Positions 19,865-40,276 of a DNA stretch of 55,123 bases are shown here, in pieces (positions within the stretch are counted from its first letter, which is position 1; every line of letters starts with the position of its first letter). Below the pieces are notes generated by a model. It searched no databases, had not been told where the DNA came from, and was given only the letters and a program-made list of their open reading frames with translations. Origin of the DNA: a virus (Duplodnaviria > Heunggongvirae > Uroviricota > Caudoviricetes); the IMG/VR virus record IMGVR_UViG_3300029305_003293, positions 118,161-173,283 of that record. One strand, 5' to 3'. Made by a program: the position numbers and the translations under genes.

Positions 19865-20227
19865 TTATGCCCCGGCTACCTTGAAGTAGGCGACGTGCTT
19901 GACCACATCACGTTCCACATCGCCGGACTTGACAAGCTGAGTCATCAGCGCAGACACCTTCTGAGAAGAAGTCTGCATCGGGTCAAGTCCCATGAACACC
20001 ATCAGCTCCTTGATGGTGGTCGGTTCACCCTTGCGAGCCATCGCATCGAGCATAGCCACCTTCAGGTGCTCATTCTCCTGCTGAGTCTTGGTCGGCTTCT
20101 TCTCAGCGGAGTTGCGCTTGATCTGCTGTTCGCGCAGAGCGTTCAGCTTTTCACGGACTTCCTCAGACAGAGCGGTGCAAGCGATAGCCATTTCCAGAGC
20201 CTTGACGTAGGTGATCTTGTTTTCCAT
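19865..20227 (-). CDS. Coiled-coil plus winged-helix protein (paralog of 23459)
   Basis: KKPTKTQQENE..TIKELM..SSQKVSALMTQLVKSG. Confidence 0.8.
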   Translation of the reverse strand: MENKITYVKALEMAIACTALSEEVREKLNALREQQIKRNSAEKKPTKTQQENEHLKVAMLDAMARKGEPTTIKELMVFMGLDPMQTSSQKVSALMTQLVKSGDVERDVVKHVAYFKVAGA

Positions 20228-23458: not shown

Positions 23459-23824
23459 TCAGCACACCGCCTTGAAATAGGCGGTGTGCTTGATGACCTC
23501 GCGCTCAACCGTGCCAGCCTTCACCAGCTGGGTCATCAGGGCGCTAACCTTCTGCGAGCTGACCTCAAGGGGATTCAGGCCCATCAGGGTCATCAGCTCC
23601 TTGATGGTCAGGGCTTCGCCGTGGGCGGTCATCGCGTCCACCATCTGACCCTTGAGAACCTCGTTCTCCTGCTGGGTCTTCGTGGGCTTCTTGTCCGCGG
23701 TGTTCCGCTTCATCTGCTGGGCGCGGAGGGCATCGAGCTTCTCGCGCACATCCTCGGGCAGGGCAGTGCAGTCGATAGCAACGGTCAGGGCGTCTACGTA
23801 GGTGAGCTTTTCGGTGTTCTTCAT
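23459..23824 (-). CDS. Coiled-coil plus winged-helix protein (paralog of 19865)
   Basis: KKPTKTQQENE..TIKELM..SSQKVSALMTQLVKAG. Confidence 0.8.
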   Translation of the reverse strand: MKNTEKLTYVDALTVAIDCTALPEDVREKLDALRAQQMKRNTADKKPTKTQQENEVLKGQMVDAMTAHGEALTIKELMTLMGLNPLEVSSQKVSALMTQLVKAGTVEREVIKHTAYFKAVC

Positions 23825-27296: not shown

Positions 27297-27417
27297 TGAG
27301 GTGTCCTCCTTAGCTTTGGGCTTAAGCCCCTTTCGATGGTCTTATTATAGCACAGGTCGCCAGGAATTGCAATACCTTTTTAGAAAAAAAATAAAAAAAG
27401 TTTTTTTCAGAAAACTG

Positions 27418-27449
27418 TTGACATCCAAGCTGATCTGTGGTATTATAAT
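27418..27449 (+). promoter_or_regulatory. Promoter driving a non-coding transcript
   Basis: TTGACA-N17-TATTAT (TATAAT overlapping); divergent from a minus-strand promoter. Confidence 0.75.
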
Positions 27450-27451
27450 AT

Positions 27452-27730
27452 CACAGCAAGGGGATGTGGCCTTGCTACTGGGCACGAAGGGTCGACACTT
27501 CGCGATGACTCAGATACCAAAAACGCATAGCCTCTGCCGTAGGGCGTCGGTGAGATTCCGACCGCGCAAGCGAAGACGAGAGCCTGAGGCAGAGGAACCC
27601 CATCCCTCCGCAAGCCGTGGGTTCAAGTCCCACCCTCCTCTGGTTAGATCAGGTAGGCGAGTTGGTTAAGCCGTGCGGGTTTAGGGATGGGGCTTTTCTG
27701 TGTCTGGTGGAGCGATCCGCCAGGCTTTTT
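27452..27730 (+). ncRNA. Unclassified structured RNA with two T-loop-like hairpins
   Basis: Own promoter and terminator; no RBS-led ORF; stems CCTCTGCC/GGCAGAGG and CCCCATCCCT/AGGGATGGGG; hairpins GTCGG-TGAGATT-CCGAC and GTGGG-TTCAAGT-CCCAC. Confidence 0.65.
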
Positions 27731-27731
27731 T
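27702..27731 (+). terminator. Intrinsic terminator of the ncRNA
   Basis: GTCTGGTGGA-GCGA-TCCGCCAGGC-TTTTTT. Confidence 0.75.
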
Positions 27732-27810
27732 CTGTGGCTCTACTGTTGCGCGAATACGGCTCGCAGGCTGGCAACACGCCCGCCCGCGAGCCGGGCAAAA
27801 TAAAAAGCCC

Positions 27811-29226: not shown

Positions 29227-29616
29227 TCCTTTCCTTTAGGTTAGATCTATTGTACCATAGATCCAGGTTATTGTCAATAACAAAATTATTAAATAATTGT
29301 AACAATTATAAAGTGTTGAGTTTTAGGATGTTTATGCATAGATGCATAAGTATGCATTCATGAATAAATATTCACAGATGCATAAATTCGCGTAAATACG
29401 GGGCGTGCTGGCCGCGCACGCCCCGACGAGTTTTTCTATAGGCGGCAGTACTCTTGTATATTTTTCTCACCTTAAAACAAAAACCAAATGGGGGGGGGTG
29501 GGTTTCGGGAAAAAATTTTTTTTAAAATGAAAATTGTGTATAGCCTGCTCTCAATTCACACTAAATCAATTTTTGTTTTCAGAATACGAGAAAAACAACT
29601 CACACTAAATCATTTT

Positions 29617-39223: not shown

Positions 39224-40276
39224 ATGTTAGAAAGAAATGAATTGCTTAAATTAATGAAGGCTACTGCTCAAGCTGATCGCTCCAATCCTGTTGCTTACAG
39301 CTTCAATGGTGAAAGCCTCAATTATGATGCTCTCAACGAGACTCTTCGTCGTGAGCTTAATGAATATGCTGGAACTTATTCTTTGTTCCGTGAAAACAAG
39401 AACTTGATTTTCTCTTTGATTGAGGAGACTATTGATCTTCTCCTTCCAAAGAAGGTTAATGAAAACTATGGTGAATTTGCTGAGACTAAGGTTTATGCTC
39501 AGGGTGATAAGCCAATCTTCACTGTAAAGGGCAACTATCACAATCGTGCAAAGCAGTTCATCACCAAGGTTGGACTTGCTGGTATTTACGAAGTATTCAA
39601 GCTTGGTAAAGAGCGTTCTTTCGAACTCCAGACCAGCGCTTGGGGCGGAGCTGCTTACATTGGCTTCGAAGAGTTCCTTGATGGACATGTTGATTTTGCT
39701 GAAGTAACCAAGATCATCATGGATGGCATGGATGAGTTTGTTTACAAAGAAATCGCTAAGGCTCTTCAGAGCACTATTTCTCAGCTTCCTGAGGCCAATC
39801 GTGTTACTGCTACTGGTTTTGAAGAGGCTTCTTTCGATCGTCTCTTGAGTGTTGCTGCTGCTTATGGTACTCCTTCTATTTATTGTACTTATGAGTTCGC
39901 TGTTAAGATGATTCCTGCTGAGGGCTGGATTTCCGATGCTATGCGTGACGAGAAGTGGGCTAAGGGCTACTTCGCTAATTACAAGGGCTATCGCGTAATC
40001 ATTCTTCCACAGAGCTTTGAGGATGAAACCAATAGCCGCAAGGTTATCGATCCTGGTTTCGTTTGGATCATCCCAGCTGGCCATGAGAAGCCTGTTAAGG
40101 TTGCTTTTGAAGGCAATACCATTGTTGACGAGTGGGTTAACAAAGATCGTAGCCGTGAGATTCAGGTATACAAGAAGGGTGGCGTTGGCGTTATCGCGAC
40201 TCCTGATATCTGTGTATATGTTGATACTGAGCTCAAGGGTCATATGGATGTAATGGATGGTTTTATTAACCTCTAA
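39224..40276 (+). CDS. Major capsid protein
   Basis: 350 aa; synteny; strong codon bias; terminator after; no TAG. Confidence 0.8.
   Translation: MLERNELLKLMKATAQADRSNPVAYSFNGESLNYDALNETLRRELNEYAGTYSLFRENKNLIFSLIEETIDLLLPKKVNENYGEFAETKVYAQGDKPIFTVKGNYHNRAKQFITKVGLAGIYEVFKLGKERSFELQTSAWGGAAYIGFEEFLDGHVDFAEVTKIIMDGMDEFVYKEIAKALQSTISQLPEANRVTATGFEEASFDRLLSVAAAYGTPSIYCTYEFAVKMIPAEGWISDAMRDEKWAKGYFANYKGYRVIILPQSFEDETNSRKVIDPGFVWIIPAGHEKPVKVAFEGNTIVDEWVNKDRSREIQVYKKGGVGVIATPDICVYVDTELKGHMDVMDGFINL

Follow-up and report, generated by a model that had tools for sequence, protein, structure and literature searches.

The closest described relatives of the RNA reported here are bacterial Y RNAs and their kin. 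YrlA (RF02553; Chen et al. 2014, PMC4201824; structure, 10.1101/312249) presents a T arm, a closed acceptor loop and a D arm in circularly permuted order, has a long helix instead of an anticodon arm, conserves the bases that make tertiary contacts and lacks a CCA end. Binding to the tRNA elbow is expected of its effector (10.1101/312249). Deinococcus Yrn1 has been modelled in the order D, short anticodon-like stem, T (PMC4201824), and the Thermus phage phiLo encodes a Ro60 together with the Y-like RNAs Yrl1 and Yrl2 (PMC12135203); Yrn1 and the phiLo RNAs are encoded beside a canonical TROVE Ro60 gene and contain the motif for binding its product, whereas the RNA studied here does neither. The elbow itself is recognized by many proteins and RNAs, and two interdigitated T-loops, as found in T-box stem I, RNase P and the L1 stalk, constitute a known elbow-binding motif (PMC4810234). 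Defences that cut tRNA, and phage tRNAs that counter them, are documented (PMC13096335). A decoy role has been raised for a phage tRNA-Tyr in the case of Septu (PMC13096335), and a phage tRNA facing the nuclease OLD replaced the cleaved host tRNA without inhibiting OLD (10.64898/2026.07.10.737580). The phage tRNAs studied so far appear mainly to replace cleaved host tRNAs.

We have analysed a stretch of 55,123 nucleotides (the window) from a virus genome record of 173,283 bases. The sequence evidence points to a real and conserved RNA gene whose product is, on that evidence, a folded non-coding RNA of about 250–280 bases; the gene is undescribed as far as the searchable literature shows, no description of the RNA having been found there (subscription papers were outside its scope). 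A conserved 350-aa late-region protein (39224–40276), probably the major capsid protein, has its nearest annotated relatives in Phass-1 (52 %) and in Enterococcus phages (39 %). Since Phass-1 is predicted to infect Clostridia (PMC10607447), the host of the window phage probably also belongs to the Bacillota, among the Clostridia. Coding density rises from 0.46 to 0.75 once TAG is read as a sense codon, and a CUA suppressor is among the 34 tRNA genes, by both of which signs the phage is TAG-recoded. The RNA gene is embedded in an array of small minus-strand genes, mostly each with its own near-consensus promoter (about 20 such promoters stand in front of small genes in the early region), which we take to be the typical layout of a host-takeover region.

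The first-pass annotation had described the gene as a lone plus-strand unit with its own promoter and terminator, and so we found it (Table 1): TTGACA-17-TATTAT with an extended −10 lies at 27418–27446 (+), a terminator-like hairpin of 10 pairs with a U tract occupies 27702–27731, and between 15484 and 31016 the promoter at 27418 is the only strong one on the plus strand, against about 20 on the minus strand. An A/T-tract upstream element is common to this promoter and the divergent promoter at 27372, and in relatives the locus is likewise headed by the same lone opposite-strand promoter. We infer transcription from the promoter sequence only, with a start at about 27452–27454; the transcript could end either at the U tract after the terminal helix or at the hairpin 27702–25 with its U6, and in alleles C and D a U-rich tail directly follows the terminal helix. 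Gene callers placed no gene in this interval in identical strains, and none of the overlapping ORFs is conserved between alleles. With its own promoter and with homologues that covary, as set out below, the locus bears out the original view of a structured non-coding RNA gene.

Table 1. Coordinates and composition of the RNA gene, its alleles and the handle RNAs
Feature	Position or source	Strand	Description
Upstream element and promoter	27380..27446	+	A/T tract, sigma-A/70-type, extended −10; 11/12 match
5' hairpin	27455..27476	+	7 bp, purine-rich Shine-Dalgarno-like loop
Second hairpin of 5' domain and loop partner	27478..27528	+	Hairpin 27478–27513; 4-bp partner 27525–28, degenerate
Module 1	27531..27595	+	8-bp carrier helix around three-way junction 27542–27585
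Module 1 T-loop hairpin	27546–62	+	5 bp, YGARA T-loop
Module 1 GNRA hairpin	27563–72	+	3 bp
Module 1 purine strand	27573–81	+	Invariant; second YGARA pentamer
Module 2	27598..27692	+	10-bp terminal helix with circularly permuted tRNA core
Module 2 anticodon-stem equivalent	27608–12/27674–78	+	Followed by variable loop
Module 2 T arm	27617–33	+	
Module 2 sealed acceptor	27634–53	+	3 bp
Module 2 D arm	27656–72	+	Preceded by U8A9
3' end region	27693..27731	+	Short U tract, then terminator-like hairpin 27702–25 and U6
Allele A	Window, identical in 7 strain copies		5' domain, module 1, permuted core
Allele B	L161, L205		Permuted core, without module 1
Allele C	L134/142/151/156		Normal-order core, GNRA-capped anticodon stem, then module 1 within terminal helix
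Allele D	L123/124		Normal-order core, GNRA-capped anticodon stem, then module 1 within terminal helix
Allele D'	L223		Core of D with another module
Allele E	L206, second unit		Different T-loop domain, permuted core sealed after 2 bp with tetraloop
Handle RNAs	Window ~1040–1145, 2300–2372	−	
Handle RNAs	G000 109400–120540		

Both long helices and both small hairpins that had been picked out by eye are present in the predicted fold. Pair probabilities are 0.97–1.0 for all eight pairs of the 8-bp helix (27531–38/27588–95) and for the outer nine of the ten pairs of the 10-bp helix (27598–607/27683–92), and the two 5-bp hairpins with 7-nt T-loop-like loops lie at 27546–62 and 27617–33. When 5000 dinucleotide shuffles were inspected, one such T-loop hairpin occurred in 0.16 % and two in none, while two helices of at least 8 bp occurred in 7.5 %; the folding z-score of the whole region was −2.3. 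The 5' GGGGATG, in contrast, does not behave as had been proposed: its alternative pairing with 27601–07 or 27634–40 has a probability of 0.00 at a cost of +6 and +16 kcal/mol, and the heptamer is not conserved among homologues. An acceptor/T domain built from the 5' end accordingly has to be given up, and the 3' module reads instead as a tRNA core complete in itself.

Module 2 runs from the T arm through the sealed acceptor and U8-A9 to the D arm, and the bases of the tRNA core are all present (U8/A14, G15:C48, G18, G19, A21, G26/A44, U54–C56 and A58); by the order and identity of these elements the module makes up a full tRNA core, circularly permuted and of YrlA topology, which agrees with the tRNA/Y-RNA-like character suspected at the outset. 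The first reading had missed the D arm (27654–27673) and had matched the RNA to no known family. With that arm there is a full-length, if weak, match to YrlA (27586–27709 aligned to model positions 1–114; 24.3 bits against a cut-off of 69, local E 0.005), and the other permuted alleles score 23–29 bits; in other respects the earlier statement stands, since a search of Rfam 15, including tmRNA, T-box, 6S, SRP, riboswitches and ribozymes, returned nothing at E≤10 beyond YrlA and noise, and ARAGORN found no tmRNA. The weak score alone is not to be trusted, because many of the weak YrlA matches in relatives are adjoining ordinary tRNAs in tandem and control genomes also score below threshold. The predicted minimum is 0.9 kcal/mol lower in energy than the YrlA-like fold, and energy-based folding by itself does not yield the D arm. 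Across three alleles, every cell of the core pairs, and 5 of its 19 pairs are changed on both sides (four of the five pairs of the anticodon-stem equivalent and one acceptor pair), as are 2 of the 10 pairs of the outer helix. Compensatory changes of this kind occur in the modules generally, and with 3–4 distinct sequences per module we regard the covariation as supportive but short of statistical proof.

The RNA would nevertheless fail membership of the YrlA family while having the fold of its effector domain. Besides scoring far below the gathering threshold, it carries no Ro-binding motif, is twice as long, has an extra 5' domain and a T-loop junction, lies far from the Ro60-like gene and has D and T stem sequences that are off the YrlA consensus; unlike YrlA, moreover, it has sibling alleles with the opposite topology at the same gene. 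Neither ARAGORN nor Rfam calls it a tRNA, from which it differs in having a sealed acceptor of 3 bp rather than one of 7 bp with a free 3' end, and in lacking an anticodon loop. The proposal that it represents a new class of non-coding RNA can be upheld in part: the tRNA-like half is a variant of the known YrlA effector domain, whereas our searches matched the T-loop junction and the module-swapping locus to nothing. We would place the RNA among the YrlA-type tRNA mimics, as a variant and not as an outright new class, with one module lacking an Rfam match and an unusual locus of swapping modules.

The junction of module 1 is closed by a 4-bp P1, and its loops and junction strand are nearly invariant while its stems covary: between the window and its relatives both sides are altered in 4 of 12 pairs, and 98 % of cells are paired. 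The two YGARA pentamers are conserved across four sequences, and a G-to-A change in several contigs leaves the loop consensus intact. No Rfam family matched the module, and a search with a model of it found nothing beyond the close clade. No model supports a relationship to the T-loops of the FMN, cobalamin and TPP riboswitches, of RNase P or of the L1 stalk, with which the module was compared by eye. Module 1 is a possible interdigitated double T-loop, as it has two T-loop-like pentamers flanking a 5-bp helix; it differs from the RNAs known to carry that motif in that the T-box and RNase P models of Rfam do not match it, its second pentamer lies on the 3' side and its hairpin loop has just 7 nt. 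It would seem to be dispensable in some alleles, being absent from B and replaced by other modules in D' and E.

In the 5' domain, the hairpin at 27455..27476 has a probability of just 0.3 in the full-length fold and is present with differing sequences in alleles B, C and D. In these three alleles its loop pairs downstream over 6 bp, with two compensatory changes (B/C versus D), and the chance of such a complement is 0.006–0.04 per allele; in allele A the pairing is degenerate (4 bp, 27525–28). Loop and downstream partner may thus form a pseudoknot. Twelve bases of this hairpin in the window (27461–27472) recur unchanged in allele E, on the 3' side of its terminal helix, and the complementarity of GGGGATG may be left over from recombination of one unit with another.

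At least six alleles were found behind the same lone promoter, and additional contigs indicate further combinations of modules. All six, together with a second RNA of the closest IMG/VR relative (G001), contain a tRNA core with 2–3 acceptor pairs beside the T stem and no anticodon loop. The core occurs in permuted or in normal order, four pairs of the latter covarying between C and D, and both topologies stand behind the same promoter; it is therefore the shape that has been kept, rather than one sequence. Also constant across alleles are a purine-rich 5' hairpin loop able to pair downstream and a GC-rich 3' helix. In one contig (L206:800–1360) alleles B and E form a tandem pair of units, each with its own promoter. 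The locus is confined to a narrow clade. BLAST against cultured phages and plasmids gave promoter or chance matches only; scans of genome and metagenome collections with sequence patterns each returned either nothing or a single chance match inside a gene. Such a natural allele series should be useful in finding the partner of the RNA, and it places a YrlA-type domain without its Ro60-binding part in the early region of a phage, where it is interchangeable with a normal-order core.

The second RNA of G001 (L226:10052–10196, minus strand) is also an early one, with a promoter-like sequence of its own. It consists of two tandem tRNA cores; a 9-bp pairing joins their ends, and the two former anticodon segments are able to pair with one another, giving a tRNA body in which an inverted second core replaces the anticodon loop, with two elbows and no anticodon; this fold lies 6.7 kcal/mol above the predicted minimum, in a prediction that is blind to tertiary contacts. 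The inner half is homologous to module 2 (76.6 bits over the full model, from which this sequence had been left out). From this we suggest that a tandem duplication gave rise, at its junction, to the permuted core, with the double-core RNA as a possible intermediate towards the permuted mimics; the duplicated RNA would offer a concrete route from a tRNA to a permuted mimic.

Our current working hypothesis, which we hold tentatively, is that the RNA acts as an early decoy or ligand that presents a tRNA core to a host tRNA-binding defence or stress factor. Host RNA polymerase would transcribe the gene immediately on infection, giving an abundant early RNA whose ends would be closed, and the molecule thereby stabilized, by the 5' hairpin or pseudoknot and the GC-rich 3' helix. 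By sequence comparison, the core can neither decode nor be charged and has only 2–3 acceptor base pairs; it would act in trans through its elbow by occupying a factor that recognizes the tRNA body. The target would most plausibly be an anti-phage or stress protein that cuts or senses tRNA, to which no anticodon loop is offered for cutting, and the swapping of modules between phages might retune the RNA to other hosts or defences. We favour this reading because the core is the sole constant element, its two topologies can replace one another and the locus has a fast turnover in a probable host-takeover region; if a tRNA-targeting defence is indeed blocked, the RNA would be a non-decoding anti-defence factor. 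The literature backs it indirectly: the decoy role raised for a phage tRNA against Septu speaks for it, and the direct test in which a phage tRNA left OLD uninhibited speaks against it. An unlikely alternative would see the RNA as a partner of Y-RNA type, acting as tether or gate in the repair or decay of RNA, either for host Rsr or for a phage protein with a Ro60-like fold. We found no TROVE gene in the genome; it does encode a 516-aa DUF2828+DUF7788 protein (L001:12520–14070, minus strand; G000 96519–98069) with no sequence match in the PDB, for which the link to Ro60 comes from fold search only, the top 12 Foldseek matches of the predicted model (pLDDT 73.5) all being Ro60/Rsr. Its neighbours (RlaP, metallophosphoesterases, an RNA ligase and a Band-7/flotillin gene) form a candidate RNA-repair cluster, it is present in 14/14 related genomes, and among its alleles the RNA shows the YrlA-like order (T then D) as well as the Yrn1-like one (D then T), the two topologies known for Y RNAs (PMC4201824). 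The protein is, however, universal in the wider clade whereas the RNA is not, and the two genes lie 48 kb apart on opposite strands; YrlAs, by comparison, are encoded no more than about 4 kb from a Ro60 gene and on its strand. The Ro-binding motif GNCGAAN(0–1)G, which in YrlA belongs to the 5' strand of the terminal stem, is absent from the window allele, B and E and occurs once each in C, D and D', a frequency not far from chance; in C the GNCGAA-G does fall on the 5' strand of the stem that carries the tRNA core, but the window RNA has neither the vertebrate Ro-binding motif nor a CAGCAA handle stem. Better candidates for such a partner are seven short stem-plus-CAGCAA handle RNAs among the tRNA genes, which are encoded on the strand of the DUF2828 gene.

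The decoy hypothesis has also to be set against readings in which the tRNA shape is not itself the active part. The core and the ends could be stabilizing scaffolds, with the activity, such as binding of a tRNA elbow or a protein, residing in the variable modules; the near-invariant loops and junction of module 1 among covarying stems, its two YGARA pentamers and the known affinity of interdigitated T-loop pairs for the elbow (PMC4810234) would suit this, yet B lacks module 1, D' and E have other modules and the tRNA core alone is constant, so that we consider it improbable. A role in stability has been proposed for the tRNA fold of Y RNAs (PMC4201824), and here too the fold could serve stability only. 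That the core is a processing signal, cut at the sealed acceptor by host RNase P or RNase Z to release smaller RNAs, has a precedent in YrlA of M. smegmatis (PMC4201824) and an analogue in mascRNA, to which there is a weak score (15 bits), and in alleles A and B the sealed acceptor could form a stack of 3+2+3 positions; we nevertheless think it very unlikely, as cleavage of YrlA by RNase P required a 7-bp acceptor (PMC4201824) where there are 2–3 contiguous pairs here, in allele E a tetraloop closes the acceptor after 2 bp, and no downstream gene awaits release. Least probable of all is that duplicated tRNA genes are decaying here behind a spare promoter and have left a relic without function: fast allele turnover, a narrow distribution and an evident tRNA origin fit such a relic, whereas compensatory changes in every module, intact tertiary-contact bases, a conserved promoter and position and the absence of any difference among seven near-identical strain copies do not. 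A broader version of the decoy hypothesis, which we offer as doubtful, is that a hypervariable early locus builds non-coding RNAs from interchangeable tRNA-elbow mimics and T-loop modules against tRNA-targeting immunity, module 1 being a new elbow-binding or docking motif and the sister RNA of G001 a tandem-duplication intermediate towards YrlA-type cores.

The handle RNAs share the genome of the window RNA, and one of them (G000 111456–111558) likewise contains a permuted tRNA core, at 32 bits; one is called tRNA-SeC(UCA) by ARAGORN. They are short, AU-rich, closed by the handle stem and located in a tRNA operon, whereas the window RNA is GC-rich and has its own promoter. The resemblance once drawn between its 5' ACAGCAA and the CAGCAAT elements of the genome cannot be maintained: the motif forms part of a local hairpin at the extreme 5' end, is flanked by no handle stem and is not conserved, being absent from all homologues (6/6 other RNAs).

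Several further features of the early region were noted. The search found no relatives of the gene upstream of the RNA. GC-rich hairpin elements, preceded by a GCGAATACGG-like motif, occur in the window at 27745–27800 and 29388–29430; similar elements are present 3' of the RNA in every allele seen and, in relatives, at the border of the early region, and the count of GCGAATACGG-like motifs alone shows no excess over chance. One related genome (G039, L224:15138–15260, plus strand) has a second plus-strand promoter in the early region, followed by GC-rich hairpins. Two early genes of 120 aa in the window, at 19865–20227 and 23459–23824, are paralogous, with 72 % identity across 233 nt.
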